Positions 6,440-47,161 of a stretch of 64,000 nt of DNA are shown here, one piece after another. Positions within the stretch are counted from its first letter, which is position 1. Each line of letters starts with the position of its first letter. Origin of the DNA: a virus. Taxonomy: Duplodnaviria; Caudoviricetes. Location of the stretch: IMG/VR virus record IMGVR_UViG_3300046318_000318. One strand, written 5' to 3'. Made by a program: the position numbers and the translations under genes. The notes beneath the pieces were generated by a model. It worked only from the letters and a program-made list of their open reading frames with translations, searched no databases and had not been told where the DNA came from.

Positions 6440-6488
6440 GAGTTTCCTTTATGGTTGGTTGATGATACATTCAGACAGCGGTCACATA

Positions 6489-6497
6489 AAGTATATG
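6489..6497 (-). promoter_or_regulatory. candidate phage promoter core CATATACTT
   Basis: Same core upstream of chimallin (8563-8571) and in the longer repeats at 37136 and 47117; TATATACTT variant at 10965. Confidence 0.45.
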
Positions 6498-6523
6498 GTA
6501 TTAGTAAAATTAACAAACAGGAC

Positions 6524-6559
6524 AAAAAAAGATACACCAGCCGAAGCTGGTGTATCTTT
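6524..6559. terminator. intrinsic terminator with UUCG loop on the minus strand
   Basis: AAAGATACACCAGC-CGAA-GCTGGTGTATCTTT. Confidence 0.85.
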
Positions 6560-19632: not shown

Positions 19633-20244
19633 TCACTGTGTCATTCTCATGTCTGTTAAAATCAGTTTTCTGACTGTGGTTTCCAAGCCAGGGAAAACTG
19701 TCAAAACATTAGACATCAAGTTATTCCTTACCTTATTCCTAAGATTGAAGTCGTTATCTGCATTGGTAGGATCTGTCAGATACTTTAACCTATAGAAGTT
19801 AGCATACTCTATAATAGTCTTCTTAGAAGTAGTTAACAAAGGTCTCTGCACATTACCATTTTGATAAGCCATCACTCTACTTCTACCTTGACAGCTGGTC
19901 ATCAGGTACCATTCAGTAGCATCAGACAGATGATGACCTGTAAGTACAGGCTTATCCATAGATTGAAATATGGTGTTTCTTTTTCTAGACCAAAAGGATT
20001 CTAGAGATGTGGAGTTATCAAACTCAGACAACTTGAAGGTTTTATAAGCTAAACCAAGCTGATTAGCTGTCTCTTTACAGAAAGCCAGTTCAGTCTTACT
20101 AAAGTCTGTGTTATGATCCACAGTAAGTAAAGTTACATTAACTCTCTTCCTTAACAGAAGGTGTAAAAGTACGACCGAATCTATACCGCCTGAAAAAGCA
20201 AGGTAAACATCTTTTTGAAGAGTCTTAAGTACATTGAGTTTCAT
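19633..20244 (-). CDS. tilS: tRNA(Ile)-lysidine synthase, catalytic domain only
   Basis: PP-loop LAFSGGIDSVVL, TGHHLSDATE, RPLL, DPTN...RNKVR; start MKLNV. Confidence 0.85.
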   Translation of the reverse strand: MKLNVLKTLQKDVYLAFSGGIDSVVLLHLLLRKRVNVTLLTVDHNTDFSKTELAFCKETANQLGLAYKTFKLSEFDNSTSLESFWSRKRNTIFQSMDKPVLTGHHLSDATEWYLMTSCQGRSRVMAYQNGNVQRPLLTTSKKTIIEYANFYRLKYLTDPTNADNDFNLRNKVRNNLMSNVLTVFPGLETTVRKLILTDMRMTQ

Positions 20245-20252
20245 GTGTTGAG

Positions 20253-20305
20253 AAAAAAAGAAAAGACACAACTGCTCAGAATCTATAAGACTCTAAGCAG
20301 TTGTG
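20253..20305 (-). terminator. terminator-like hairpin after the tRNA pair
   Basis: CACAACTGCT...AGCAGTTGTG followed by a U-rich run on the minus strand. Confidence 0.6.
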
Positions 20306-20314
20306 CTTTTTTGT

Positions 20315-20626
20315 TGGTAGGCAGGATGAGATTCGAACTCACTATCTTCGGCTTCACATTTGTGTTAGTTTCCTAACTCTGTGGACTATATCACCATCCT
20401 TAACTTAATATTAGGATGTCGGGCGCTTTACTCTGTTATTAAGAAGATTCTACTTCTCAGATAGTCTCTGCACTTTCCTAGGGTATACCCTAAGCTTAGC
20501 TCAGTATTGCCGTCGTCATTATACGTTACGGTTTCACTGAATTCACCCGATTATTCAATACTGATTACTCAGTAAGGTCACCATTGAGATGAGGCCGCCG
20601 CTTATAACCCCTTAAGCTTCCCGCCT
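20315..20626 (-). tRNA. tRNA with CAU anticodon (probably Ile2), interrupted at 36/37; exons 20589-20626 and 20315-20354
   Basis: Acceptor AGGCGGG/CCTGCCT-A-CCA, loop CT-CAT|AA, T arm GTGAG-TTCGAAT-CTCAT; adjacent to tilS. Confidence 0.88.
20355..20588 (-). ncRNA. group I intron (IC3-like, 234 nt) in tRNA-CAU
   Basis: GAATTCAGTGAAACC, AATACTGAGCTAAGC, GTGCAGAGACTA, GATATAGTCC; P1 CAU/GUG; ends in G; layout like the Azoarcus tRNA-Ile intron. Confidence 0.9.
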
Positions 20627-20635
20627 ATTTTACAC

Positions 20636-20939
20636 TGGTCCGCCCGGCAAGAATCGAACTTGCAACTAAAACTTAGCGTCACACTATAGTTTTCACTACC
20701 AGGTTACCCTGTTTGTGCGCTGGACTTTGTCTTGATCATGACCTACTTATGATAGGTTTTAGATCTTTGCCGTCAAGTCTCTACACGTTCTATCCCTTTT
20801 GAAAAAGATAGCTTCGCTCGGCGTTGGCATCAGCATTACCTGTTAAGCGTTCACCGAATTTGACAAAATTCACTGAATACTTTCGACATCCAGTGCTCCT
20901 AATTGAAGGTTCTTGTTATATCCATTTAACTACGGGCAG
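20636..20939 (-). tRNA. tRNA-Arg(UCU) interrupted at 34/35; exons 20906-20939 and 20636-20676
   Basis: CTGCCCG/CGGGCGG-A-CCA, D arm GTTA-AATGGATA-TAAC with A20, loop CTT|CTAA, T arm GCAAG-TTCGATT-CTTGC. Confidence 0.88.
20677..20905 (-). ncRNA. group I intron (IC3-like, 229 nt) in tRNA-Arg
   Basis: AAATTCGGTGAA, AACGCCGAGC, GTGTAGAGACTT, GACAAAGTCC (P7 GACUU/AAGUC); short P1 with U.G; ends in G. Confidence 0.9.
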
Positions 20940-20944
20940 ATTAT

Positions 20945-21830
20945 CTTTAATAACACTTTATTCAAATGTTATTAAAGATACCCAATATCACTATTGGGTC
21001 TTACCACTTATTACTCACGTAAGACAAAGCTCACATTTTCACATTAGATTCTATATTCTTTTACTCTTATAGACTTTACAGTCAGAGATATTCCTTTAAG
21101 AATCTTACGTGGGTTTAAAGTCTTTCTACCATATCGTGTTATTAGTACCAGGGGCTGACTATGCAATCTTAGGCTTTTCCTGGATTCAGTCATGCTACAA
21201 CTAATAACGCATCAGAGTAATTACTTCTGATATTTGACTTAGGTAATCTCCATTAGACTTATACCTTCTGTATTTAATCCGACCAGACTGCCTTTCGCAT
21301 GTATCTGGTTTTACTGTTTCCAGTAGTGAGCTAAACTCACATTTCGGTCAGATTGGTCCCAGAGTAACTCTGGACTTTGGAGATGGGCACCCACTCGTTA
21401 AAGTGTTTTACCGTCTTTCGATAACTTTTACGCTCATTGACATAGCATGTGGTTTAAACATCGCTTGTCTTGATGGACTACAAGTTATTTTTTCGGTGGC
21501 GTCTTGTTTATCTGTCTGCTTAATCGTTGTCGCTATTCCAAGGGCGAGTCCACCCATCCTGGCGAATGAGCTTCAATCTCTCACGACTATCCTATAAACT
21601 TTTAAGCTTTTCCATTATTTCAGACCTTACAGCTAACGTCTATATCAGGCGATTAATATAGACATATGCGTATCTGTTGTCATGGCGACAGATGTTCTCG
21701 ATGATTGTTCAAGAACATCGATATTCCTCACATGAGTACATTACTGAAACTCATGCAACCTTTTACAAGGACGATATACTTAGGAACGCTAAGTATAATT
21801 AACTGTCTTTCACTCTCGTGTGGAGCTATT
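20945..21830 (-). ncRNA. candidate large structured ncRNA (~0.9 kb) upstream of the tRNAs
   Basis: No credible ORF; dense perfect hairpins and multi-branch helices, several GNRA loops. Confidence 0.5.
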
Positions 21831-21876
21831 GAACTTAAAGCCACCAGTATCAAGACTAATCCTGGTTTCAATGATA

Positions 21877-22074
21877 TTATTTATATACCGCGCAAGGCGG
21901 TCGAGGTTTTTCTGGTGGGGATTTGATAGACCCTGTCGTTGCAGCAACACGTTTAGCCCTAGCAGACTGCAATCGTTTAAGGCTGTTGTCTATCTCATCC
22001 AGTTTGAACAACGACACAAGGTCGCACGCTCTCCAGAAATAACCCCATGAGAAATCATTCCACATGGCGATCAC
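21877..22074 (-). CDS. hypothetical protein
   Basis: 65-aa ORF in operon orientation. Confidence 0.45.
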   Translation of the reverse strand: MIAMWNDFSWGYFWRACDLVSLFKLDEIDNSLKRLQSARAKRVAATTGSIKSPPEKPRPPCAVYK

Positions 22075-22078
22075 TTTC

Positions 22079-22384
22079 TTAAGTTTGTTTCAGCTCTTCT
22101 ATCATCAGTTCAAGCATACGCTTTTTAACTTCAGGATCTATGCTCTTGGGAACATAAACAAGTCCGCGTATGGCAAACTCTTTCATGTAAGACAACGACA
22201 TTTTTGTCGCGTTGTCAAATCTGGTTTCACATGCTGTCAACCTAGAACCAGATTTTAAACTCTCTATGTAGTTTACAAAGTCATCTGAACTAACCATACC
22301 TCTACAGATATCAATAAAGATATTATAAGGATGGGTATTGAGGTTGATTTCCATATGTTCCTTAGTGCATGCACCCTTGCACAT
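22079..22384 (-). CDS. hypothetical protein
   Basis: Up to 101 aa (start may be MEINL); promoter-like repeat at 22407-22435. Confidence 0.6.
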   Translation of the reverse strand: MCKGACTKEHMEINLNTHPYNIFIDICRGMVSSDDFVNYIESLKSGSRLTACETRFDNATKMSLSYMKEFAIRGLVYVPKSIDPEVKKRMLELMIEELKQT

Positions 22385-22657
22385 TATACAAGAGGTAAAT
22401 AAAATTTGACACTATTGTCAGATAGAGTTTATATAGCTATAGTTGTTTAGAAAAGGGAAAAATAAAACCACCAGGTGTTACCCTGGTGGTTTTATCTTGC
22501 GCTTACCCGCTTTTCAACTCGGAAGACCAAAACACCATGCGATCCTAAAGCCAGATCGTAATAATTGCTCGTTTTACCGAGTCCAACCATTTATATAGGA
22601 GACACAGAGCTGGAGCTAATCCCAGTCGCCACTATGTACCTCAGTCTTTCCATAACA

Positions 22658-23251
22658 TTATACTTGATTCTGTTTTTGATATCTGAGTTGATTTTCATAG
22701 TAATAAACTTTGAACTTACAGTAATATTTCAAATGTTTGAAAACTGAGAACATGAAAGCCAGGAATATACTCATTAAAGATACCAGCAGTAAACTTGTTG
22801 TGATAAATATAAGACCGGTACCGCTAATGGCCTGAGTCATTAATAACACTATAACAACATAAGAAGTTATCTTACTGATTGTGGGTAATCGATATAAGAA
22901 GAACTCATTGTTACTTATAACAAAACAATCTTTTAAAGTTACGCTGGTTCTGTGAGATCTTATATAGTTACCGGTATGGATGTTAACACTATTCTCATAT
23001 TGCAAACCCAGAAGTACCAAATAGATACTTACACATGTTGCTAGATATGCAATCAGAAAGACAACCGTCTGAACAAAGAAAAAGTCTGTTTTATCTAGAT
23101 CGTAAAGATAAAGATAAAGCTGTTTTGTTCTTTCATCTATGAAACTCAGAAAGGTTTTATCCCGAATGAGGATAGAGTAACTGAATAGATACCAGAATAC
23201 CAAAGCTATAACTGAATAGCTGACACCGAATAAGTTTCTAAGAAAAAGCAT
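22658..23251 (-). CDS. membrane protein
   Basis: Several hydrophobic segments. Confidence 0.65.
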   Translation of the reverse strand: MLFLRNLFGVSYSVIALVFWYLFSYSILIRDKTFLSFIDERTKQLYLYLYDLDKTDFFFVQTVVFLIAYLATCVSIYLVLLGLQYENSVNIHTGNYIRSHRTSVTLKDCFVISNNEFFLYRLPTISKITSYVVIVLLMTQAISGTGLIFITTSLLLVSLMSIFLAFMFSVFKHLKYYCKFKVYYYENQLRYQKQNQV

Positions 23252-23954
23252 GATTGATCCTGAGATTAAGTCTGTTTTTGATAGCGTCAGTGCCGGTATA
23301 ATCTTGAAAGTTTGAGAAACCTTCGTTCAATTGCAGCTTGATGAAGCAAAAAGCCAAAGCTCTGTGGACAAAGCTCACATATTTTTTCCTGCTGAAGGTT
23401 TGTGAAAATCTCACACTCTGCGTCATCTCAGGTGTGAGATGGGTGAGATAAGCATCTTTAGTTTTACCAGCCTCTAGTAGATCCAAATACTTTAGAGATT
23501 TGTCTATCTCCTCAGCAGTAAACTTAACCACTATGTTTTTATGATCAAGAAACATAAGGCCGATAGGTGCAAAGATAATCATCTCTGAGTAACCTATGCT
23601 ACCCCTGTGAGAGTTATAACATCCCAGTAACATGTTATACATATCCATGGATTTGGGTCTGTATAAGATCTTATTAGATATGTCTGTCGTCTCAGCCTTG
23701 GCTAACATGAGCATATACATATTAGATACACTTCTGGTAAGAAGCACCTCTAGACTATCTTCTTTTTGATATGTCAGTTTGGAGAACATATCTTTAACGT
23801 CTTTGACTAACCAGTTGTTAAAGTCCTTTTTGTCTGTAGAGACAGGGTTAAACATACTAGAGATGAGGTTTTCAGAATAATCAAGCAGGCCTTCCAACAT
23901 CTTACCTGGTATGGGATAGTCTAAAAGTTGCGTTTCTTCAAAGTCTAATTTCAT
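23238..23954 (-). CDS. hypothetical protein
   Basis: 238 aa, overlapping start/stop. Confidence 0.7.
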   Translation of the reverse strand: MKLDFEETQLLDYPIPGKMLEGLLDYSENLISSMFNPVSTDKKDFNNWLVKDVKDMFSKLTYQKEDSLEVLLTRSVSNMYMLMLAKAETTDISNKILYRPKSMDMYNMLLGCYNSHRGSIGYSEMIIFAPIGLMFLDHKNIVVKFTAEEIDKSLKYLDLLEAGKTKDAYLTHLTPEMTQSVRFSQTFSRKKYVSFVHRALAFCFIKLQLNEGFSNFQDYTGTDAIKNRLNLRINHAFS

Positions 23955-24157
23955 TTTGTTACCTTAGATAGTTGATTGAGTTTGATTCGGTAATAATTTA
24001 AAGATACTGACCTGGCTCTTAGCTGAGTCAATCTTTTTTCCTGTTCAGGTGTATATTCTTTACCAACCTTTGAATCATGTACTTTATAAAAGAGTTTGTT
24101 GATCTTTTCTAAGAGTCGAGTGGATTGATCCCATTTATGGACATTTGTCATGTTCAC
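23951..24157 (-). CDS. hypothetical protein
   Basis: 68 aa, coupled. Confidence 0.6.
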   Translation of the reverse strand: MNMTNVHKWDQSTRLLEKINKLFYKVHDSKVGKEYTPEQEKRLTQLRARSVSLNYYRIKLNQLSKVTK

Positions 24158-24906
24158 TTTATCTTTCTGATATGTTTACAACCTAGACAGTGATTAGGTA
24201 CTATTTTGTCTTTAAAGCTTAACAAAGCAGCTTCTCTAGAAAACCCCTGTGGTTCTTTTATATAGCAACAAGGTAATTCAACGCCATCTATTGTATAAAA
24301 CGGATTGTTTTTATTTCCGTTTAGAAAATCACAAGTTATGGCTTTGGCTTTGTCATCCGGGACTTTAAATATAATTTTCTTATTTTCGGGATATACAGAT
24401 ACATAATCAGACTTAACTGACAGTTGATTAATATTGTAAAAAATATTATTTTCTTTTAACCAGAGTAAAGTGCTTTTTAAGTCTTGACCCACATTGGTTA
24501 TTTGCACATCCACAACAGTCTGCTTATGTGATTTTAACAAAAGTATATTTTGCATCACCTTTTTAACATTATGCCTGCCTATTGACTTACATGTTTCTTC
24601 GTCAATGCTGTCTAATGAAATAGATATTCTTTTAAAATATTTAATAATTTTCTCTATATCAACAACAGATCCGTTAATTATGGAATAAGGTATATGACCT
24701 CTAGAATAAACATAATCAACTCCTTCCCACCAGTATTTCCATAAGGTTGGTTCGCCTTCACCCTGTAGTTTAATAACAGACGTGTCTTTAAGCTTATCTA
24801 TAATTGTGGTAAAGGTATCCCAGGACATATCTTTTTGCTCCATGGTCCTGCCTGTGCAATACCAGCAATTATAATTACAACGCGTGGTTACTTCTATTTG
24901 TATCAT
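24154..24906 (-). CDS. radical SAM protein with C-terminal Cys cluster (twitch/SPASM-like)
   Basis: CNYNCWYC, GEGEPTL, SISLDS, C-terminal C...CC...CLGC. Confidence 0.85.
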   Translation of the reverse strand: MIQIEVTTRCNYNCWYCTGRTMEQKDMSWDTFTTIIDKLKDTSVIKLQGEGEPTLWKYWWEGVDYVYSRGHIPYSIINGSVVDIEKIIKYFKRISISLDSIDEETCKSIGRHNVKKVMQNILLLKSHKQTVVDVQITNVGQDLKSTLLWLKENNIFYNINQLSVKSDYVSVYPENKKIIFKVPDDKAKAITCDFLNGNKNNPFYTIDGVELPCCYIKEPQGFSREAALLSFKDKIVPNHCLGCKHIRKIK

Positions 24907-24986
24907 TATTCACATCACATGTTTTCAATTTATCGTAAATAAAAATAACGCAAAAAAGATAAGCAGGGATTTACCCCTGCTTATCT

Positions 24987-25265
24987 TTAAACCTTCTGCA
25001 CTTTACCGCATGTGGAACAGGTGATTTCACCGTTCAGCATGTAGAACTTGCACGGGTCTTGAAATGCTATCTTGTCGTAGTCGCAAGCAAGGTTCTTGCT
25101 TTCTACGATGGTGGTGATAGCTGTGCGCTCTTCTTCAGACCCAGCCACTACTTTGTAGTCTGTGTATTTAGGGATACACAGAGCACGTTTTACATTTTGG
25201 AAGAATGATTTAAACATTTTCCGCCTTTGGAATCTGGTGGTCTGTGGTAAAAGCCATTTTTCCAC
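24987..25265 (-). CDS. small protein with C-terminal CxxC (start uncertain, likely MFKSFF)
   Basis: ORF ends TCSTCGK; terminator follows. Confidence 0.55.
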   Translation of the reverse strand: MEKWLLPQTTRFQRRKMFKSFFQNVKRALCIPKYTDYKVVAGSEEERTAITTIVESKNLACDYDKIAFQDPCKFYMLNGEITCSTCGKVQKV

Positions 25266-25560
25266 CCATGTGCCTGAGCTTTACGTCACAGATGTTTTCG
25301 ATCTGCTCGTCCATCATCTTATCGATTTTGGATTTGATGAAGTCTTGCATTTCAGGTTTTTCCAGCTCTTTACTGATGATTTCTTCGATCATTGAGCGAC
25401 CAATGCCTTTATCTTTGACGAGTTTGCCATTTATATAGGCATCTCTTTCATAGAAAAAAGCGTAGAAGGCGCTGTTGATAGTTTGATCTATCTGAAGCTT
25501 GAGTCTTTTTTCGATGGCTGGTTTATCGATCAACTGATCGATGTTGAATTTGATTTCCAT
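25210..25560 (-). CDS. hypothetical protein
   Basis: 116 aa, leader AGAAAGAATGTACC-ATG. Confidence 0.7.
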   Translation of the reverse strand: MEIKFNIDQLIDKPAIEKRLKLQIDQTINSAFYAFFYERDAYINGKLVKDKGIGRSMIEEIISKELEKPEMQDFIKSKIDKMMDEQIENICDVKLRHMGGKMAFTTDHQIPKAENV

Positions 25561-25593
25561 GGTACATTCTTTCTTGAGACAGGATTGATTAAA

Positions 25594-25797
25594 TCAAGCC
25601 AAAGCAGATTCTTCCAACTCCAGCATGTTGACAGGCACATGTGCCTTATCTCTGGACTGTTCATATTGAATATGAACACGAGCGGATCCGACAGGCGCAT
25701 CTTCCACTACACGGATACGGAACTTCATTTTCAACCGTGATGTGAAAATACCCTTAGTACCTTTTTTGATCAAGGTCTTGCTGACTGGTTCAGTCAT
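25594..25797 (-). CDS. hypothetical protein
   Basis: 67 aa, coupled. Confidence 0.6.
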   Translation of the reverse strand: MTEPVSKTLIKKGTKGIFTSRLKMKFRIRVVEDAPVGSARVHIQYEQSRDKAHVPVNMLELEESALA

Positions 25798-26074
25798 TTC
25801 TTTCTTTCTTTACAGGTTCTTCTACAAACAGTATATAGATGACTGCGTAGATAACTAATAACAAATTAAACAAAATGATCGTGGACACACCTGTCCAGAA
25901 GATCACAGCAGCCAAAGGCTGGTCTGGTGTATACCAGTGTGTGAACACAACACCAAAAGTCAGAATAAACACCACAAGTGCAATCAGCTTAATGTTAACT
26001 GCTTTCTGATAGTGTTTATGGAAGACGTTATTTGGGTTATCTCTATAGCTTGAGCTTTCAAGATACTTGTTCAT
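25790..26074 (-). CDS. two-TM membrane protein
   Basis: Two hydrophobic helices. Confidence 0.65.
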   Translation of the reverse strand: MNKYLESSSYRDNPNNVFHKHYQKAVNIKLIALVVFILTFGVVFTHWYTPDQPLAAVIFWTGVSTIILFNLLLVIYAVIYILFVEEPVKKERND

Positions 26075-26577
26075 GATCTTATATAAGTTTTCATGTGTTT
26101 GTCAGCTATGTGTATAGTATCTAGTTGAATCCGTCTGGTGACATCATCTTCCATCACACACATAGCCTCGTGCATGTCTTTAACCTGATTGACTTCAGAC
26201 TCAGTGAATCTGTACCAATCAGGATTAGTTTCATGTTCAGAAGCTTTTACCACCAGCATGTTAAAGACAGCTTCTAGCTCATCTACAGTTTCTTGCACAT
26301 AAACCACTTTAGCTATCTCTACCGCATGCTTGGTTCTAAAGGCTGCGTTATACCAATCAGTAGGTGTGCCTGTATTGGTTTCAAGAGCTTTGATGGTTAA
26401 TTCAAAAACTCTTCTGATCTTATCCTTCAGTTCTTTAGGAACAGCAAAAACCACTGGGGTGTGGGTTTTGTATTTCTTTTTGACTTGAGGGCGTTGTTTG
26501 AGTTTAAGTTCTATTACCACGGCTAGGGATGAAGTTATCCAGATAGGTGTTGATGTAATAGGCTGCCTCAGCTGCAT
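26071..26577 (-). CDS. hypothetical protein
   Basis: 168 aa. Confidence 0.65.
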   Translation of the reverse strand: MQLRQPITSTPIWITSSLAVVIELKLKQRPQVKKKYKTHTPVVFAVPKELKDKIRRVFELTIKALETNTGTPTDWYNAAFRTKHAVEIAKVVYVQETVDELEAVFNMLVVKASEHETNPDWYRFTESEVNQVKDMHEAMCVMEDDVTRRIQLDTIHIADKHMKTYIRS

Positions 26578-26737
26578 CTTTACATCTCACGATGGAAGTA
26601 GACAGCCTGTACTTGAGAAATATCGTACCTGACTCAAGTATGGAAATACCTATAGGGCAGTTAACACCGTCCAGATTTGTTTCTTTGACAAACTTAGAAA
26701 GTCTGTTAACAGCTTTATCCAGTAAACCATCAGTCAT
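26504..26737 (-). CDS. hypothetical protein
   Basis: 77 aa, coupled to upstream stop. Confidence 0.5.
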   Translation of the reverse strand: MTDGLLDKAVNRLSKFVKETNLDGVNCPIGISILESGTIFLKYRLSTSIVRCKDAAEAAYYINTYLDNFIPSRGNRT

Positions 26738-27255
26738 TTGACTTCCTTGAAACTAGCGATGAAATTCTTCATGCTCCCAGCAGGTGTGGTGTTTCCAGTC
26801 TGGACTTTAAACCCAACACGAAACTCTGACTCAAGACCTTTGCCAGAATCTACACGTTCAAGACAAAACATGTATAGGCCATGTTCATCAGCCACAGCGT
26901 CCAGAGCCATGGCTTGATCATGACAACTAACTGTCATGAAATATTCTTGAGGTGCTTGCCTTGCCAAAGCCAGACATAGGTTGAGTTGATTCTCACGCAT
27001 CTTGTTGACGTGTTCGTGAAATTCTTTCTTCAGGGTGCGCATCTCAGCTTTCAAAGCTTTGTTTTCTTCTTTGATAGCGTTGAGTTGTTTGTTCTCTTTC
27101 AGAACATCCTGAAGATCCAGGATCAGCTTAGCAATATTAGAAAAATCAAATTTTGAGGTTTGATCTTCCATAGCTACTGTAACGGCATTTTGAACTGCTG
27201 ATTCATTAACCTGTTTCTTGGTAGCTGACTTCACAACTTTACTTTCATTCAACAT
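26734..27255 (-). CDS. coiled-coil hypothetical protein
   Basis: 173 aa behind the conserved promoter-leader. Confidence 0.75.
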   Translation of the reverse strand: MLNESKVVKSATKKQVNESAVQNAVTVAMEDQTSKFDFSNIAKLILDLQDVLKENKQLNAIKEENKALKAEMRTLKKEFHEHVNKMRENQLNLCLALARQAPQEYFMTVSCHDQAMALDAVADEHGLYMFCLERVDSGKGLESEFRVGFKVQTGNTTPAGSMKNFIASFKEVK

Positions 27256-27300
27256 GATACATTCTTTCTTTAATGAGACAGGATTGTCAAGTAAAGTCTA
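27253..27300 (-). promoter_or_regulatory. conserved promoter-leader element
   Basis: ACTTTACTTGACAATCCTGTCTCATTAAAGAAAGAATGTATC-ATG, nearly identical at 29202 and 59836. Confidence 0.65.
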
Positions 27301-27395
27301 TATAACCGTAATTATTTACGAGGGTTTAATCAAATAGTAAACATCGTGAATAAAAAAATAAATATAGAACAGCCCTTGTGAGGCTGCTCTATATC

Positions 27396-27629
27396 TTATC
27401 TGTCTAATTTCAAATCGATCAGCTTAGTCAGCTTATGGATAGTGTTATATCTGTCCATCTCATCATCGGTTATAAACACATCGAAATGTTGTTCTAACTG
27501 CATGATGATCTCTACTCTATCCAGACTGGTTAATCCTACGTCACTATTTAGAACGGTATCTATTGTGACGTGTTGATTGGTAAACTCAGTCACGATCTGT
27601 TTTATTTCAGATTCTGTTGTTGTCCTCAT
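27396..27629 (-). CDS. acyl carrier protein-like
   Basis: ~77 aa, acidic; VGLTSLDRVEIIMQLEQHFDVFITDDE matches the ACP phosphopantetheine-site pattern (TSL for DSL). Confidence 0.8.
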   Translation of the reverse strand: MRTTTESEIKQIVTEFTNQHVTIDTVLNSDVGLTSLDRVEIIMQLEQHFDVFITDDEMDRYNTIHKLTKLIDLKLDR

Positions 27630-27665
27630 GATACATCCTACGTTGATACATAGGATATTCAATCA

Positions 27666-28181
27666 TCACTTCTTACCACCGGTGATAAGCCTTGGGGACC
27701 AACCCTTCTTAATCACAGTCTCTTCTGAAACTTTAAATTCTTCAGGTTCTTTTTCTTCAATGGCATGTTCATTAACAGTGGTGTGTTCGGTAAGCTTATC
27801 CTTACCTGACTTCTCAGCTATTACTATCTTTGTAAGCTGGATGAAGAATGATGTAAAAGGATAGGGGATAACCGCATCTACATCTACATCAATAATAGCA
27901 TCTATTTCGTCCAGAGAAATCATGATGTTTTCAGGCTTGCCGTTGAACCTGGCCTGAAAACTCAGATAATGTTCATAAACACCAAAATTGTGCACAGACT
28001 CAGGTGATAGATTAAGAGTGATAACCCCTTCTTGACTTTTATGCTGCTCCAGGAAACCTGCATGGGTCTTAGGGCGATACCAGATATGTACACGATGACC
28101 TTGCTCAGTCAACAAAGTGTAGCTGGATGCAAAGGCATCTGTTACAAGTTTTTTAACGTCAAGTTGAATTTGAACATTCAT
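27666..28181 (-). CDS. SspB-like ClpXP adaptor
   Basis: ITLNLSPESVHNF...LSFQARFNGKPENIMISLDEI, acidic tail. Confidence 0.75.
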   Translation of the reverse strand: MNVQIQLDVKKLVTDAFASSYTLLTEQGHRVHIWYRPKTHAGFLEQHKSQEGVITLNLSPESVHNFGVYEHYLSFQARFNGKPENIMISLDEIDAIIDVDVDAVIPYPFTSFFIQLTKIVIAEKSGKDKLTEHTTVNEHAIEEKEPEEFKVSEETVIKKGWSPRLITGGKK

Positions 28182-28374
28182 GATTTTGTTCCTTAGTTGG
28201 AAGTTGGTGATTGTGAGGGTTGAAGATGATGCCGTCGGTACGTTTAAGCCAGGCTACAGCAACATAGTTGACTTGAGGATAACCCCTTTGTGTGATGCCT
28301 GTAATAGTACCAGGTCCTACAGGACTATCTTCTATGGTATCGCCTATCTCAAGATATTCAGGGTTCATAGTCAC
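28159..28374 (-). CDS. hypothetical protein
   Basis: 71 aa, coupled. Confidence 0.6.
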   Translation of the reverse strand: MTMNPEYLEIGDTIEDSPVGPGTITGITQRGYPQVNYVAVAWLKRTDGIIFNPHNHQLPTKEQNHECSNST

Positions 28375-29204
28375 ACTACTTTCATGACACGTTGAAAAAT
28401 GTAAAACTTTCTATCTGGAAACTTAATGCCCAAACGTTGAGCCTCAGTAAAAGCTTTCTTATATGTCAGATGAGTTGAGGGTTTTTCAGAAAATTGATAA
28501 CCGTTAAAATCTTCTGTTTTTTCTTTCAGCTTACTGGATATGACAAATATTCGTTTTCTTTTAAGACTGTTGGTATGGTCAAGAACCATATCTACTGTTT
28601 TACAGAAATTTAAATAGTGCTCATTAAGCTTGGTATTTTTGTAGTGTGTTCCAGTTTCGTTAAGCTGGATACCGTTTTCATCTAATAGATGCTGAAGGTT
28701 ATTTTCAGCGTAGATGCTAAACATCTGTTGTTTAGTACCGGGCATGATACTTTCCTTTTTTGACGAAGTTTGATTTTTACATTCTTTTTCTGGCAGATGT
28801 ACACCATTTATGTACCAGTATTTTTCACCGCTGCGATTTTCGATAGCAGGTCCATCAATACGGTGAAGCATGCCGTGTCGATACCATAATTTATTACCAT
28901 CTATGCGCTCAACAGCTGATCCGTCTTCCCGATGACGCTCACCGTTCAGCCACCATTCACTATGACCATTCCGGCGATCGATAGCAGGACCATCTATTCG
29001 ATGACGCTTCCCGTTCAGCCACCATTCTCTATCGCCGTTAGCGTACTCAACAGCAGGATCATCTAGACGATGTAGTATGTTGTCCAGATACCAAGCTTTA
29101 TACCCATCCAAACGCTCAACGGTTGGACCATCTTCACGATGAAGCTTATCGTCTTTATACCAAACTACACTTCCATTTTCTTTTATGACTTTTCCATTTA
29201 ACAT
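28371..29204 (-). CDS. protein with N-terminal HRxDGPA repeats fused to an unrelated C-terminus
   Basis: Tandem ~23-aa WY...LHRxDGPAVE repeats. Confidence 0.8.
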   Translation of the reverse strand: MLNGKVIKENGSVVWYKDDKLHREDGPTVERLDGYKAWYLDNILHRLDDPAVEYANGDREWWLNGKRHRIDGPAIDRRNGHSEWWLNGERHREDGSAVERIDGNKLWYRHGMLHRIDGPAIENRSGEKYWYINGVHLPEKECKNQTSSKKESIMPGTKQQMFSIYAENNLQHLLDENGIQLNETGTHYKNTKLNEHYLNFCKTVDMVLDHTNSLKRKRIFVISSKLKEKTEDFNGYQFSEKPSTHLTYKKAFTEAQRLGIKFPDRKFYIFQRVMKVV

Positions 29205-29250
29205 GATACATTCTTTCTTTAATGGGACAGAATTGTCAGATAAAGTTTAA
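29202..29250 (-). promoter_or_regulatory. conserved promoter-leader element
   Basis: TTTAAACTTTATCTGACAATTCTGTCCCATTAAAGAAAGAATGTATC-ATG. Confidence 0.65.
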
Positions 29251-29323
29251 ATGATTATAAATAACTAGGCAGCCTATTTGCTCTGTTCATAAAAAAAACA
29301 GGACCCGAAGATCCTGTTTTATA

Positions 29324-30313
29324 TTAAGGTAAGAAATCACACTTCATCAACCTCAGAAACTTTTCAGTATCTGAGATAGGAAATGAGAACCCTGAAGCAT
29401 TTTTATGCCCACCGCCGCCGTTGTGTTTAGCTATAGCTGATACATCCACATCTCCAGCAGCGTTACTACGAAGAGAAACTATCACCAGATCTCTACCAGG
29501 GCTGACGATGAAGAAAGCACAAAACGCATACTCATCTTTAACAAGATCAGCCACGTTTGATACATACTTCATATCACAGTTCATAAGGGCTGCTTTACCC
29601 AACTTGGTTTCCACAGGAGTAATAAGTCCTTTCAGACGCTCACATTCTGCTTCGTAGAAGTCAAGCTCCAATGCTGCTTTGGTCCAGACGGCTTTAAATT
29701 CACTATCTGACATTTCAAAGATCTTGTCCCAAGCTTCAAATGTCATCTCAGCATTCAAAACTTTGTTCCAGATCTTTGTACCGTCCAATTTGAAAAGCCA
29801 CAGATCACGATCTTCTACAGCCAACGCAGCATGGCGCAGTCTAGCAGGAACATCGATATCTTCAGAATCAATAGTTTCCAAAGCCAGACCAGCGCCTGAA
29901 CGATTCTGGATAAGTTTAGTGAAGAACTTAACATCCTTCTCACAACAAATCAGGTCAGGTCTCTGCTCAAGACAAAGATGATTGACTGTCTTTAGTTTCT
30001 CTACGTCAGAAGCACCGTAGATATCAATCGCTGTCTTGTGGTGATCAAGAAACGCCAAACACTTGAGGTTTGGGGATTCGTTGACAATCTTAGCCAGATC
30101 ATCTTTGCTGTAAGAATAGTCGATAATCCAGAACTCTTCTGCGTCTGTAGACAAAGCCTCGTCACCATACTGCACTGGTGTGTACAGTACATCTAGACCA
30201 TCCAACTCAGCTTCCTGGCTTTTAAACCAATGTCTGAGTAGATAAGCAGACATAAAACCATCGGTACAGTTCTTGTGGTACCGAACTTCAACTTTCATTT
30301 TTTCAGACATCAT
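29324..30313 (-). CDS. DHH/DHHA1-family phosphoesterase
   Basis: YHKNCTDG, IIDYS, FLDHH, EDRDLW, SLRS, GGGGHKNASG. Confidence 0.88.
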   Translation of the reverse strand: MMSEKMKVEVRYHKNCTDGFMSAYLLRHWFKSQEAELDGLDVLYTPVQYGDEALSTDAEEFWIIDYSYSKDDLAKIVNESPNLKCLAFLDHHKTAIDIYGASDVEKLKTVNHLCLEQRPDLICCEKDVKFFTKLIQNRSGAGLALETIDSEDIDVPARLRHAALAVEDRDLWLFKLDGTKIWNKVLNAEMTFEAWDKIFEMSDSEFKAVWTKAALELDFYEAECERLKGLITPVETKLGKAALMNCDMKYVSNVADLVKDEYAFCAFFIVSPGRDLVIVSLRSNAAGDVDVSAIAKHNGGGGHKNASGFSFPISDTEKFLRLMKCDFLP

Positions 30314-31241: not shown

Positions 31242-31382
31242 TTCATAATAACCCAATAAGTTATTGGCTTTTGGGTTTGGTTTACTTGATGAAATACCAA
31301 GTCTCAAATAAAGTAGATGTTGCCAAAAAAATTTACATAGCCTATACACCCGAGCCATATAGGCCGGGTGTATAGCTGTGTT

Positions 31383-31747: not shown

Positions 31748-31968
31748 GATTTATCAAACCTCTTTTTTATCTCTCTAAAAACTACCATCGATAACACCAG
31801 AGCTGAAAATATATTCAGTAAAGGAGCTAAAGACACCACTATCAAAATACCACCTGTGGTAGCACTGAAGTCTACACCTCTCTCATCATAAAAAAGATAA
31901 GCGCAGATAGCTGTTAGAACAAAACCAAAGATTACAAAAGTCAGATGTGTAGTTATAAGAAATTCCAT
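31744..31968 (-). CDS. small two-TM membrane protein
   Basis: Start moved to MEFLITT; two hydrophobic helices. Confidence 0.6.
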   Translation of the reverse strand: MEFLITTHLTFVIFGFVLTAICAYLFYDERGVDFSATTGGILIVVSLAPLLNIFSALVLSMVVFREIKKRFDKS

Positions 31969-32101
31969 TTTAATACCGTTGTTGTAGTTACAGTCAAATA
32001 ATTTCGGGTAAAAAAATAAGGGCGGGACAGTTTGTATCTGCTTGTGACAACCGAGTCTGGGTAGACTGATCACTTGCATCAACAAACTGTCCCTAATTAA
32101 G

Positions 32102-32201
32102 AACAAAGCCAACATGAATCGAACATGTTAAGTAAATATAACCTTCTACGCAGAATAGCACTGCTCCAGTTAATTTACTTGCCTCTACCAGACGGCTTTG
32201 T
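32102..32201 (-). ncRNA. tRNA-like element without a normal anticodon arm
   Basis: 9-bp AACAAAGCC/GGCTTTGTT stem, TGGTAGAG D-loop-like segment, T arm AACATG-TTCGATT-CATGTT, 12-bp anticodon-position stem with 26-nt loop, no CCA. Confidence 0.6.
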
Positions 32202-33366
32202 TTCTCTATTTATTACAAGATAGAGAAGGATGTGTCAGTCACCGCATCCAAGATATTTATAACACCGACTCGTGTTACCGGTTTGTCCAAACCTGGTGAA
32301 AGGATAAGCTACATCTGTTTAACTCAATCGCCACATACCCAGTAGTTCAGGTAAGGGTTAAGATGATTGTGCTATAATAAGCACAGAGCCTTAATACGAC
32401 AGTGTTTTAATTCATCAACATAACACTGAAGATACCCGAGTTCTCAATAGAGAATCTCGCTGTATTTTTGATGCCTAAGCACTCTAAAGCTATCTCTCCT
32501 AAAATAAGAGATAGCTTATAGGCTGCTCTCTGGGGTGATCAATCCCAAAGTTTACAACTTCCCAAAGATATCATTCATACAGTTCCCGACCAAGGGTAGT
32601 CTATATAAGAGATATCCATAGGGCGTACGATTTGGCGGTTGGTTAGACCACCTTCTACTCCTTAACAAAAAGTTAAAGGCAGGCTATTATCGTGAGCGCA
32701 CCTCTTTCTATTACACACTTGTGATGTGTTTCGTCCTTGTGTTTAAAGCCTTAGGACTCATCAGATAGATAAGGCTCAAATGAAGTTTATGTGGCCTCAT
32801 TCTTTTATAAAGGGGTTTTCCCATAGCAGACTAAATGACTTCTGTCTATCTAATCTGCTACAGGCAAACACCTGAGTGCTAACTTGTTATCATATCACAA
32901 AGGTAGATAACCACAACCTATTACAATAAAGACGTGTGAATCGCCTGCTTGCTTTGGCAAGAACAGCCCTCGAAGCTAGAGCCACATCAGGTCTGAACAA
33001 TCGTCAGAACACATGATCCCAGGGGATTTAAAAAGCATCAAACACAGTTCTGGGAAACTATGTGCTAGATCGACAGTTTATATTTTCCTTGTTTTATCAA
33101 CTAAGTGAAAATACCGATCACTTTATACTGCTCCATCGTGCGTGTATTTTGTTATCACGCTAACGTCCCGATAGTACGTTTACCTAAGTTACCAATGGTC
33201 AATACCTGCACCCTAGCCTTACGCCCGCAAGCGATCTATTAACTTAACTCCGTAATCCGCAATGATATACGCACATTAAGAAATGTTTACACACTAGATT
33301 TACTAAGCAGCGACTTGTTAGTTACCATTGATACGATCAAGTCTACTCCGGTTTACTTAGGTTAAA
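32202..33366 (-). ncRNA. long ORF-free structured region containing a hammerhead
   Basis: No ORF of 60 aa or more in ~1.15 kb; many hairpins. Confidence 0.55.
32707..32769 (-). ncRNA. type I hammerhead ribozyme, predicted cleavage after GUA (between 32712 and 32711)
   Basis: UCUAU-CUGAUGA-GUCC..GGAC-GAAA-CACA..UGUG-UA|AUAGA: all core nucleotides and three helices present. Confidence 0.88.
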
Positions 33367-33425
33367 TGGTACCAGGAACGGGACTCGAACCCGTAAGACC
33401 CTTGCGGAAGTATTAAGTTTTTAAA
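33367..33425 (-). pseudogene. 3' half of a broken tRNA-Leu
   Basis: TTTAAAA remnant loop, long variable arm with GCAA loop, ACGGG-TTCGAGT-CCCGT, TCCTGGT-A-CCA. Confidence 0.75.
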
Positions 33426-33434
33426 GTACATGGG

Positions 33435-33743
33435 TGGCCCGCTCCGGAATCGAACCGGAACGCCCCTTACGAAAGCGTCAGATTTTAAGTCTGATCTCTA
33501 CCACTGCAGTTTTCACTGCCACTTTAGTGTGTTTGTGGTCTGGACTATCCCTTCAACTACATCCTAAATGTTTAGCTGGGCGATTATAGTCTCTGCACGT
33601 CTTTCTATATTTCTATAGAAATTTCGCTCAGGATTGGCATCAGCAATTAACTGTTAAGCTTTCCCTGAATTTACGCCATTTTACTACATTATTTCTAATG
33701 TAGGACACATCAAATATATGTCTACCTATTTCATCAGCGGGCC
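33435..33743 (-). tRNA. tRNA-Leu(UAA) interrupted in the D arm at 25/26; exons 33718-33743 and 33435-33495; CCA not encoded
   Basis: GGCCCGC/GCGGGCC-A, GGTAGACAT|A, TCAGA-CTTAAAA-TCTGA, long variable arm, TCCGG-TTCGATT-CCGGA. Confidence 0.9.
33496..33717 (-). ncRNA. group I intron (IC3-like, 222 nt) in the tRNA-Leu D arm
   Basis: AAATTCAGGGAAA, AATCCTGAGC, GTGCAGAGACTA, GGATAGTCC; P1 GACAU/GUGUC, P10 AUCAGA/UUUGAU; ends in G. Confidence 0.92.
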
Positions 33744-33754
33744 ACCCATGTACT

Positions 33755-34255
33755 CTATTTCTTTTCTAATCTGTAGTATTCTTTCTTTATTTCAGTTCTT
33801 TCGATGATCACGCCGCCATTTTGAACTTTGGCGCCATAAGAACCTGAACATTTTTTACTACAAAAAGGACCTGCTCTATTAGAAACATAATTAGTTATCT
33901 GATTTTTACTAGGGGTAAATATTTCCTCACACCCAGCACACTTTACAGGATCCACCTTTACTCGTTTAGCGTCTTCACTTGCGTGAACAGGCAGTGTTTT
34001 AACAATAAGGTTATTTAGAGAATTATTGGTGAAATTTCTATCGTGATGGTCAACAGTCTCACCGTCTTTTAACTTTTGTTTTAATTCAATTTCTTTTAAA
34101 GCCTTGGGGTAAGAGATGGTTTTGGTCTTACCTTTAGTCCCCTTAGCAGCTTTTGAATTATTTAAAACAATATGCTGTCGACCATCACTTCTGTGATAAG
34201 GACCTAAGACGGATGTATATTCTGGATATAATCCAAGAAGTATTTGCTTATCCAT
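33755..34255 (-). CDS. free-standing HNH endonuclease with C-terminal Cys4 Zn finger
   Basis: ETVDHHDRNFTNNSLNNL; CAGC...FCSKKC. Confidence 0.85.
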   Translation of the reverse strand: MDKQILLGLYPEYTSVLGPYHRSDGRQHIVLNNSKAAKGTKGKTKTISYPKALKEIELKQKLKDGETVDHHDRNFTNNSLNNLIVKTLPVHASEDAKRVKVDPVKCAGCEEIFTPSKNQITNYVSNRAGPFCSKKCSGSYGAKVQNGGVIIERTEIKKEYYRLEKK

Positions 34256-34260
34256 GTTTT

Positions 34261-34425: not shown

Positions 34426-34487
34426 TTACTCTCCGCATTCTATTACAAACACGAATAAAAAAATACCCTGTTTGACCAGGGGTATTT

Positions 34488-36695: not shown

Positions 36696-36807
36696 GATAC
36701 TTTCCTTTTTTAAAGTTGAAATACTGTCAAGTAAAGTAAATAGGATCAAAAAATTATACACAGGCTGAAAAAAAATCCCCTCAGCTTTTGGCCTTGGGGA
36801 TTCTCTG

Positions 36808-37135: not shown

Positions 37136-37171
37136 GCTCAAGTTAAGTATATGTCATTGAAATCTTTTACA
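37136..37171 (-). promoter_or_regulatory. 36-bp promoter repeat
   Basis: GCTCAAGTTAAGTATATGTCATTGAAATCTTTTACA; 34 of 36 nt identical to 47117-47152. Confidence 0.65.
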
Positions 37172-37248
37172 AAGATAGTCGGGTTTAAAAGATACACAGA
37201 GCCTTACGGCTCTGTGTATCTTAAGCTCTCAGACTCTCACGAGTCAGA

Positions 37249-43646: not shown

Positions 43647-45191
43647 TTACATGTTCAAAGCGTAACCGACACAATACAGATAAGGCGTGACTCCATCAAA
43701 GGACTCCACCATAAAGCTGAATGTATCGATTTTGTTGTTGATCAAAGTAAGAGCTGGAGCTGCACCATCAGGGAACTTCACGTTAGCTGGGAATACAAGA
43801 TCACCACCTTTGTGAATAATAACCACTTTGTAGTCAAAACCTATCCGTGTGAGATCTAAGTTCTGAATATTGAAGTTGGTTACGTTAGAGATTAACTCTA
43901 TACGGATAACCTGATGAGTATCTAAATCCCAAGAAACAGTACCCGAAGCTGGCTGTACTTTATTGGTAGTAGAGACTTTCTGTGGTTTGGTGAAGTTATT
44001 CTCTGCGGAAGGAGACATGTAGTCTGTACCAGCAGCAGCTAAAGTCAATATGTTGTTGGTAGTCTTTAACAGACCTGTTCCGGCAACGTTGATACCACCA
44101 CCCACACCGCCACCTGTGCTTATTACACTGATGGCGTCTGATAAAGCCACCATATCGGTTATGATACCGTTACCAGTAATACCTGGGGTGATGCCGTTAA
44201 CTATGTCTGATAAAGCAGTTAAGCTTGTGATGTCAGCTTTTAAAACATTTATACCATTGACTGTGTCAGTCAATGCATCTAAGGCAACCTGACTGGCTTT
44301 ACTCAGAGAAAGAGCATTTACCGTATCACTTAAGACATCAAGATCTACCTGCGTAGCTTTAAGCTGATTAATTTGATTAACCAAATCACTCAATGCATCC
44401 AAATCTACTTGACTTGCTTTACCAGCTATCAATACAGAATGCGATTGAATAAGGGTAGTCAGTGCGGTGATTTCAGCATTTATAGCTGTAAGGTCTACAG
44501 TACCGCCACCGCCACCACCGCCCCCAGCTTGTAAGTTTGTTACTGCTGTTTGCAGATTGGTAATGATAGTAGACAAACCAGAAGTGTCAGCAATAGCGTG
44601 TCCATGACCAATAGCTGATTTACCTGCTAAACTGGTTTGGATAGAACCTAAACTATCATTCAGTCCCGATATGCTAGACATGTCATGAACATGACTAACA
44701 GCTGCTTTACCAGCCAATGCTGGTGATAATCCAGCTATAGTAGTCATGTCGTGTACATGACCAGTTTCAGCTTTCATAGACAAAGTCTGTGCTAAGAGAC
44801 TGATATCATCTATAGCGTGCGTATGGCCTAAAGCAGCCTTACCAGCCAACGACAGATCAAGACCACTTATCTCAGAGCTAACGTGCGTATGTCCAAAATT
44901 AGACTTGCCAGCCAGAGCCGTCATCAAACCTGAGATATCATCTGTAGCTAGGGTATGTGTGTGATTTGCATCAGCTTTACTTAGCAAAGCAGTCAGCACA
45001 GCAGTTGATACTGGCTTATCGGCATCACTTGTGTTGCTGACATTACCCAGACCCACATCTTGTTTAGTGAGTATAGATTTAAAAGTATTCAGAGTCATTC
45101 GGTAATTCTGATTACCAAATATCAAAGACACTTGTTCCAGACCTGTGGCTGTGGTTAACAGCGAAAAGTCACTTATCTTTCTATTAGCCAT
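43647..45191 (-). CDS. tail fibre with HxH repeats and C-terminal beta domain
   Basis: MANRKISDF N-domain, HxH repeats, coiled-coil repeats, Gly tracts. Confidence 0.8.
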   Translation of the reverse strand: MANRKISDFSLLTTATGLEQVSLIFGNQNYRMTLNTFKSILTKQDVGLGNVSNTSDADKPVSTAVLTALLSKADANHTHTLATDDISGLMTALAGKSNFGHTHVSSEISGLDLSLAGKAALGHTHAIDDISLLAQTLSMKAETGHVHDMTTIAGLSPALAGKAAVSHVHDMSSISGLNDSLGSIQTSLAGKSAIGHGHAIADTSGLSTIITNLQTAVTNLQAGGGGGGGGTVDLTAINAEITALTTLIQSHSVLIAGKASQVDLDALSDLVNQINQLKATQVDLDVLSDTVNALSLSKASQVALDALTDTVNGINVLKADITSLTALSDIVNGITPGITGNGIITDMVALSDAISVISTGGGVGGGINVAGTGLLKTTNNILTLAAAGTDYMSPSAENNFTKPQKVSTTNKVQPASGTVSWDLDTHQVIRIELISNVTNFNIQNLDLTRIGFDYKVVIIHKGGDLVFPANVKFPDGAAPALTLINNKIDTFSFMVESFDGVTPYLYCVGYALNM

Positions 45192-47116: not shown

Positions 47117-47152
47117 GCTCAAGTTAAGTATATGTGACTGAAATCTTTTACA
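47117..47152 (-). promoter_or_regulatory. 36-bp promoter repeat
   Basis: Near-identical to 37136-37171. Confidence 0.65.
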
Positions 47153-47161
47153 TGAGGATAA

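Follow-up and report, generated by a model that had tools for sequence, protein, structure and literature searches.

The minus strand of the window, i.e., the whole 64,000-nucleotide stretch of viral DNA analyzed here, carries at 32769-32707 a type I hammerhead ribozyme which, judging from its sequence, is probably functional, stabilized by a pseudoknot and used to trim the leader of its own non-coding transcript. The hammerhead fold is very probably under selection, and cleavage in vivo is considered likely. Leader removal from its own transcript could be the main role of the ribozyme, a proposal on which our judgment is evenly balanced. The ribozyme class itself is well known; what the locus adds is a hammerhead located just behind a recurring promoter-like motif. 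To our knowledge, thousands of phage hammerheads have been found and hardly any of them has been assigned a role. The present locus is unusually clear, with a promoter-like motif, a ribozyme placed approximately at the predicted transcription start, and a structured non-coding RNA whose end is tRNA-like. The window comes from a large phage and contains a gene for a divergent family B DNA polymerase (PF20286), along with many HNH genes and, in addition, four group I introns.

Hammerhead anatomy and conservation

At this locus the plus strand displays the reverse complements of the hammerhead cores, which places the candidate on the minus strand. The sequence-only reading had claimed a complete type I hammerhead at 32707-32769, and every element that it listed was found there, in minus-strand orientation. 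Stem I, formed by UCUAU (32769-65) and AUAGA (32711-07), is an open helix, hence the type I topology of the ribozyme. It is followed by the core CUGAUGA (32764-58) and by stem II, in which GUCC (32757-54) pairs with GGAC (32736-33), a fifth U-A pair being possible, and which is closed by a loop II of 17 nt (32753-32737). After the GAA located at 32732-30, stem III associates ACACA (32729-25) with UGUGU (32717-13) around a 7-nt loop, where a sixth U.G pair is possible. Position H17 corresponds to A32712, within a GUA triplet, and the scissile bond is predicted between 32712 and 32711 from hammerhead numbering and established chemistry. Cleavage would leave a 2',3'-cyclic phosphate on A32712 and a 5'-OH on A32711, the very position at which the earlier reading had expected the 5'-OH end.

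The conserved core bases C3-U4-G5-A6-N7-G8-A9 and G12-A13-A14 are all present and are identical in the two relatives described below, L001 and L180. The pairs A15.1-U16.1 and C15.2-G16.2 are also present, and H17 is A here and C in L180, both of which are allowed. Three helices (5, 4-5 and 5-6 bp according to the descriptor) surround the core, stems II and III being closed by loops. The MFE structure of an 81-nt construct was the hammerhead three-way junction, and the folding z-scores of the ribozyme constructs were unremarkable (-0.5 to -1.3).

The frequency at which such a motif arises by chance was then estimated. A type I descriptor including the core, the A15.1-U16.1 pair, an H17 other than G and the three helices was run on both strands (128 kb) and matched exactly one site, the hammerhead at 32769-32707. 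In 300 dinucleotide shuffles, relaxed matches (stems of at least 4, 3 and 3 bp) occurred at 0.01 per window and equally good matches were absent. Extrapolating the relaxed rate by a factor of roughly 0.375 per extra base pair gives about 1e-4 to 3e-5 equally good matches per window, i.e., about one per 10,000-30,000 windows. By our estimate, a handful of chance matches of this quality would be expected across some 250,000 windows. Such matches are not negligible at that scale, and conservation is therefore the stronger argument.

The ribozyme site is absent from the Rfam matches at the gathering score. In a permissive scan, Hammerhead_1 (RF00163) aligned to it with 16.1 bits for a cut-off of 34 (E=1.3). 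Comparable sub-threshold matches were obtained in 13 of 14 control genomes, so that this score is uninformative either way. Hence, the search with a Hammerhead covariance model that the sequence-only reading had put forward as a check does not discriminate at this locus. The loss of bits is due to the long insertions in loops II and III, and the gathering cut-off of RF00163 is the threshold of a curated model, not a property of the ribozyme class.

Relatives of the locus were searched at several levels. No match to the 1.7-kb region was found by blastn among GenBank phages. In IMG/VR, searches guided by the proteins of the two flanking genes yielded only one relative, L001, a 120-kb contig about 94% identical to the window; with an estimated completeness of 44%, it would derive from a jumbo phage. 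The search for homologues of the downstream 123-aa ORF returned relatives at 91-92% only. Around the ribozyme, L001 is identical to the window over about 105 nt, whereas 4-6% of positions differ in the non-coding DNA nearby. A metagenome scan in which only the core and stem II were fixed recovered L180, a diverged 3.97-kb ENA contig. This contig is syntenic with the window, with which it shares a thymidylate kinase gene and a DprA-like gene, 65-80% identical in nucleotide sequence. It carries a tRNA, then the ribozyme about 85 nt later, and stops 68 nt past the latter.

The comparison of the window with L180 is informative for each helix. The unpaired bases of the core do not differ. Stem I shows two double compensatory changes, from U-A to C-G and from C-G to U-A, and stem III shows one double change from A-U to U-A, one C-G replaced by U.G and two added pairs. 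Altogether, three double changes, one wobble change and two added pairs were counted, with no broken pair; the family consists of two distinct sequences in the collections searched, and its covariation is thus that of one comparison. With a covariance model whose only input was the window copy, L180 was aligned in structural register (53.2 bits, E~1e-10) and no second site was found within the window. When 24 distinct phage type I hammerheads were aligned to the model, 98.5% of cells paired, vs. 29-47% in slid registers, in an alignment that is model-fitted and hence biased towards the structure; the pairs 15.1-16.1 and 15.2-16.2 were invariant across them. A scan of GTDB genomes with the flank and core gave 13 matches, about 20 being expected by chance according to our estimate, and none of them completes a hammerhead. 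As far as these sequences tell, the ribozyme is conserved within a lineage of large freshwater phages.

It could be argued that the motif is a chance or decayed hammerhead-like sequence devoid of activity. The sub-threshold and non-discriminating Rfam score would fit this explanation, as would the few matches of this quality estimated at the scale of about 250,000 windows. However, compensatory conservation is observed in L180, whose surrounding intergenic DNA is otherwise unalignable, and we consider a chance origin very improbable.

A predicted pseudoknot between the 5' tail and loop II

Among 133 viral hammerheads sampled with the same stem II, most loops have 5 nt vs. 17 nt here. This long loop II would be explained by a predicted pseudoknot of 6-7 bp with the tail located 5' of stem I. 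Indeed, the tail AGCCUUA (32776-32770, minus strand), directly 5' of stem I, is an exact 7-nt Watson-Crick complement of the beginning of loop II (UAAGGCU, 32753-32747, minus strand), and the other 10 nt of the loop return across the helix. The resulting topology is that of a classical H-type pseudoknot stacked on stem II, with a zero-length junction, and does not conflict with stems I and II. Six of the pairs are invariant in L180, where the seventh is removed by matched one-base deletions on both sides. The pseudoknot is thus predicted from this matched indel and by analogy with other hammerheads, the six shared pairs being invariant.

When longer constructs (141 and 85 nt) were submitted to nested folding, the helix between the tail and loop II was chosen over stems I and II, from which we consider this helix to be strong. 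The same result could be taken to mean that the helix is a competing fold, trapping the 5' strands of stems I and II and making cleavage slow or conditional, as in a switch. Nevertheless, the helix is topologically compatible with both stems, through its H-type arrangement and zero-length junction. Moreover, pseudoknots of this kind are known to activate hammerheads (PMC3088659), and the same design, with covariation, is encountered in two other hammerheads, L126 and L128. A competing fold therefore appears improbable compared with a stabilizing pseudoknot. According to a previous study, about 40% of hammerheads use a pseudoknot between stems I and II, whose disruption decreases activity 20- to more than 100-fold (PMC3088659).

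A 5'-tail complement of loop II of at least 7 nt was found in 3 of 40 non-identical type I hammerheads with long loops, for 0.15 expected. These three cases are the family of the window, L126 and L128, and the last two differ from each other by a G-C to A-U swap within an 8-bp tail pseudoknot. In L037, L016 and L058, the pseudoknot partner is the 3' tail, and the 5'-tail design is that of a minority. A putative 5'-tail type of pseudoknot is thereby documented, which would account for such copies being missed by the Rfam type I model. Besides, two other pairings were considered and discarded. An extension of stem I by GCCUU and GAGGU, suggested by the MFE, cannot form in L180, and a pairing of loop II with a downstream AGCCU near 32683 is broken in L001.

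Promoter-like motif, possible substrates and predicted released RNA

Upstream of the ribozyme, a promoter-like element of 44 nt (32818-32775, minus strand) ends at the pseudoknot tail. It consists of an upstream block like GTAAAAGA (here ATAAAAGA), a -10-like box and a conserved TTGAG block. The -10-like box is TAAACT at the ribozyme and TATACT in the best copies of the motif. The 18-nt core of this flank occurs four times in the window (the copy of the ribozyme and three others, all on the minus strand) vs. 0.15 expected, and the copies align as two blocks. With a leave-one-out matrix made from the three other copies, the copy of the ribozyme scored 26.5 bits, vs. at most 19.7 among 200 shuffled windows. 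The matrix added copies at 10964, 36726, 27286 and, weakly, 6481, for a total of about eight, all on the minus strand. Apart from that of the ribozyme, the copies thus lie at 47118-47161, 37137-37180, 31303-31346, 10964-11007, 36726-36769, 27286-27329 and 6481-6524. Most of them are located 30-80 nt upstream of start codons led by a Shine-Dalgarno (SD) sequence. The copy of the ribozyme is 659 nt before the next ORF, which has no SD. From these occurrences, the two-block motif can be considered as a candidate class of phage promoter.

The -35-like block of the element is non-canonical, and a generic sigma-70 scan did not flag the site. The approximately 45 nt preceding the ribozyme are the only intergenic stretch that could be aligned between the window and L180. 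In a read-through RNA, part of this conserved flank could alternatively form a hairpin (32802-32780). From the placement of the -10 box, the predicted start of transcription is approximately the G or A that immediately precedes the pseudoknot tail; a start a few bases later would lose the tail. Because the ribozyme is immediately downstream of the promoter-like element, it probably constitutes the first ~70 nt of the transcript.

These observations suggest the following mechanism. The promoter-like element would start an RNA whose first ~70 nt are the ribozyme. During synthesis, the 5' tail would pair with loop II and stems II and III would close, then the 3' strand of stem I would complete the three-way junction. 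The RNA would be cut between A32712 and A32711, shedding a leader of about 66 nt with a 5' triphosphate and a 2',3'-cyclic phosphate end. The structured RNA extending from 32711 to about 32102 and ending in a tRNA-like cloverleaf would keep a precise 5'-OH end. The same bond would be cleaved in any read-through transcript of the tRNA cluster located upstream. In this scheme we infer the cleavage, the transcription start and the purpose of the 5'-OH end, which may be the stability or the maturation of the non-coding RNA.

The position of the tRNA genes has to be weighed against this proposal. On the minus strand, a DprA-like gene is followed by a terminator-like hairpin, tRNA-Thr (34425-34351) and a tRNA-Leu interrupted by an HNH cassette. 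Then come some 590 nt of non-coding DNA, the ribozyme, about 590 nt without ORF and ORF 32115-31744. The cassette includes an intron-bearing tRNA (33744-33431, minus strand). The last tRNA ends at about 33362, and some 590 nt separate this end from the ribozyme. Within this spacer, the ~540 nt extending from the CCA end of the tRNA to the promoter-like element (32820-33361, minus strand) are free of ORFs; they are conserved at about 94% in L001 and absent in L180. L180 keeps both the promoter-like flank and the ribozyme, though without these ~540 nt. A weak terminator-like hairpin with a T-rich tail (32946-32930, minus strand), a consensus match of five pairs including three G-C, is also located in the spacer.

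The sequence-only reading had noted that the hammerhead is on the same strand as the tRNA operon, which is correct, and had deduced that it should cut the tRNA transcript, which is probably not its main role given the ~590-nt spacer, the hairpin at 32946-32930 and the promoter-like motif abutting the ribozyme. The corresponding explanation would make the long transcript of the tRNA cluster the main substrate, the tRNAs and an upstream RNA of about 590 nt with a cyclic-phosphate end being parted from the downstream RNA. This is consistent with tRNA-Thr and the intron-bearing tRNA being on the strand of the ribozyme, with no strong terminator between the tRNAs and the ribozyme, and with the tRNA of L180 ending only about 85 nt upstream. 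Other tail-pseudoknot hammerheads are located inside tRNA arrays. However, the promoter-like element adjoins the ribozyme and represents what is conserved in the spacer, the ~540 nt of non-coding DNA further upstream are dispensable in L180, and the terminator-like hairpin lies in the path of such a transcript. Besides, in L126 and L128 a consensus promoter parts the upstream tRNA from the ribozyme. We therefore regard the tRNA-cluster transcript as a rather unlikely main substrate compared with the transcript initiated at the promoter-like element.

Several features of the tRNA cluster itself were observed. The cassette at 33401-34258 (minus strand), with an HNH gene and the intron-bearing class II tRNA (anticodon loop CUUAAAA, Leu-UAA), is inserted within the resident tRNA-Leu. 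L001 (10617-11304) is devoid of it and has an intact tRNA-Leu(UAA), a different HNH cassette disrupting its tRNA-Thr. In the tRNA at 33744-33431 (minus strand), a group I intron (Rfam match at 33727-33519) seemingly lies between the D arm and the anticodon arm; its P1 U.G pair coincides with the D stem end, and the anticodon loop further downstream is intact and not the insertion site. The anticodon call of ARAGORN for this tRNA (Val) is unreliable. A bidirectional terminator-like hairpin (34466-34481) separates the DprA-like gene from tRNA-Thr, and a TAGAAT -10-like box about 10 nt before tRNA-Thr suggests that the tRNA cluster has its own start. Elsewhere in the window, a 93-nt tRNA-Met called by ARAGORN at 44628-44720 (minus strand) lies inside the ORF of a tail-repeat protein (43647-45191), has no Rfam support and is probably a false positive.

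The predicted 3' product of the cleavage is a structured non-coding RNA of about 510-610 nt (32711-32102, minus strand). From 32711 to about 32102, neither an ORF under table 11, TAG=Q or TGA=W nor an SD-led start was found, recoding being rejected as a means of opening an ORF across the region. An SD-like AAGAGG just past the cut was also discarded: no start codon follows it at a suitable distance, and L180 lacks it. No Rfam family matches the released RNA. In this RNA, the positions at which the window and L001 differ are concentrated in loops or belong to compensatory changes, as illustrated by two double compensatory changes in the hairpin 32559-32622. The 3' part forms a tRNA-like cloverleaf (32201-32102, minus strand), in which an acceptor-like stem and a T-arm with a UUCGAUU loop are accompanied by a long arm that replaces the anticodon arm. 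Its MFE structure is a four-way junction (z = -3.95), which is kept in L001 despite a changed arm sequence, and neither ARAGORN nor Rfam called it as a tRNA. The call of ORF 32115-31744 is doubtful, since its ATG lies inside the T stem of the cloverleaf and is not preceded by an SD.

As the downstream RNA is structured, the ribozyme might belong, as an arm, to a larger knotted small RNA that is uncatalogued. Against this, the flanks of the hammerheads at the other loci compared have no sequence in common with the present locus, and L180 stops 68 nt past the ribozyme, conservation further downstream being beyond judging there. We find such a larger RNA improbable, and retain a separate ribozyme heading the non-coding RNA. 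GOLLD and ROOL are large structured non-coding RNAs found beside phage tRNA genes, and the released RNA resembles them in being large, structured, non-coding and close to phage tRNA genes. No Rfam match to either family was obtained at any threshold used, and we know of no hammerhead described at the 5' end of GOLLD or ROOL. Tentatively, and with less confidence than for leader removal, the hammerhead and the cloverleaf might produce the two ends of a large phage non-coding RNA of a new kind. It would be transcribed from a dedicated promoter, the ribozyme would generate its 5'-OH end by removing the triphosphate leader, and the cloverleaf would recruit RNase P or Z to set its 3' end. If this is true, a structured RNA of ~500-600 nt would mature without any phage protein, which would give phage hammerheads a concrete job.

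Comparison with other self-cleaving ribozymes

The closest known systems are the pseudoknot hammerheads of Perreault et al. (2011; PMC3088659; RF00163), which occur in bacteria, prophages and phages and have the same core, three-way junction and open stem I, as well as a non-coding position in phages. Their base-paired contact holding stems I and II parallel (PMC3088659) would correspond here to the predicted pseudoknot. The ribozyme of the window differs from them by its 17-nt loop II, by a predicted 5'-tail partner, which is a minority design, and by an Rfam score below the cut-off. In the same study, phage hammerheads were shown to flank genes and the 5' end of a haloviral transcript was mapped to a hammerhead site (PMC3088659).

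The promoter-ribozyme design is also encountered before a tRNA in two unrelated phages. These hammerheads, L126 and L128 from phage tRNA arrays of IMG/VR, are likewise of type I, with a long loop II, an upstream promoter and adjacent tRNA genes, and have an 8-bp 5'-tail pseudoknot. They share no homology with the ribozyme of the window outside the core, and their promoter is a canonical sigma-70 one (TTGACA-17-TATAAT, as we read it), ending 11 nt before the tail. At both loci (L126:1850-2400, minus strand, and L128), the order is tRNA-Ser, tRNA-Cys, the sigma-70 promoter, the hammerhead and a tRNA-Asn. Their cut is 10 nt before this tRNA, whereas the ribozyme of the window precedes an RNA of about 600 nt that is not a tRNA. 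The tRNA-Asn of L128 was not called by ARAGORN though its 5' part is present, and it may be interrupted. Among 100 type I hammerheads, a good sigma-70 match was located directly upstream in 5, vs. 0-2 at control offsets. Promoter proximity was consequently rejected as a general rule for phage type I hammerheads, being with 5 of 100 a recurrent minority arrangement.

Theta ribozymes, which are HDV-like and located beside tRNA genes of gut phages, were proposed to generate the ends of phage RNAs independently of host nucleases (PMC10879173). Like the present element, they are small, cleave themselves and are located in tRNA regions of phages. They differ by an HDV-like double pseudoknot and by a cut at the 3' end of tRNAs, in contrast to a hammerhead whose nearest tRNA end is about 590 nt upstream. 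In 31950-33200, no HDV-like Rfam match was obtained at E up to 5-10, and hammerheads are not mentioned in the study of theta ribozymes (PMC10879173).

Another comparison is provided by RiboJ, in which a hammerhead right after a promoter removes the promoter-derived leader and standardizes the 5' end (PMC7536230). The succession of a promoter and a leader-removing hammerhead is proposed here too. RiboJ insulators are engineered, derived from satellite RNA and placed upstream of mRNAs, whereas the element of the window is natural and heads a non-coding RNA. By this analogy, our best reading is that of a natural counterpart of RiboJ-type ribozyme insulators. In the study of RiboJ, the uncleaved mRNA was modeled as being degraded about twice as fast (PMC7536230). 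The arrangement found at the present locus makes it testable whether phage hammerheads are natural leader-removing devices setting 5'-OH ends.

Finally, a different arrangement was noticed in the viral or metagenome contigs L038, L151, L163, L058 and L088, which carry three to five near-identical hammerheads each, spaced by about 0.4-2 kb. In L151, the contig whose flanks were read, every hammerhead copy precedes an SD-led gene, a multi-copy gene-flanking arrangement as in Perreault et al. (2011).
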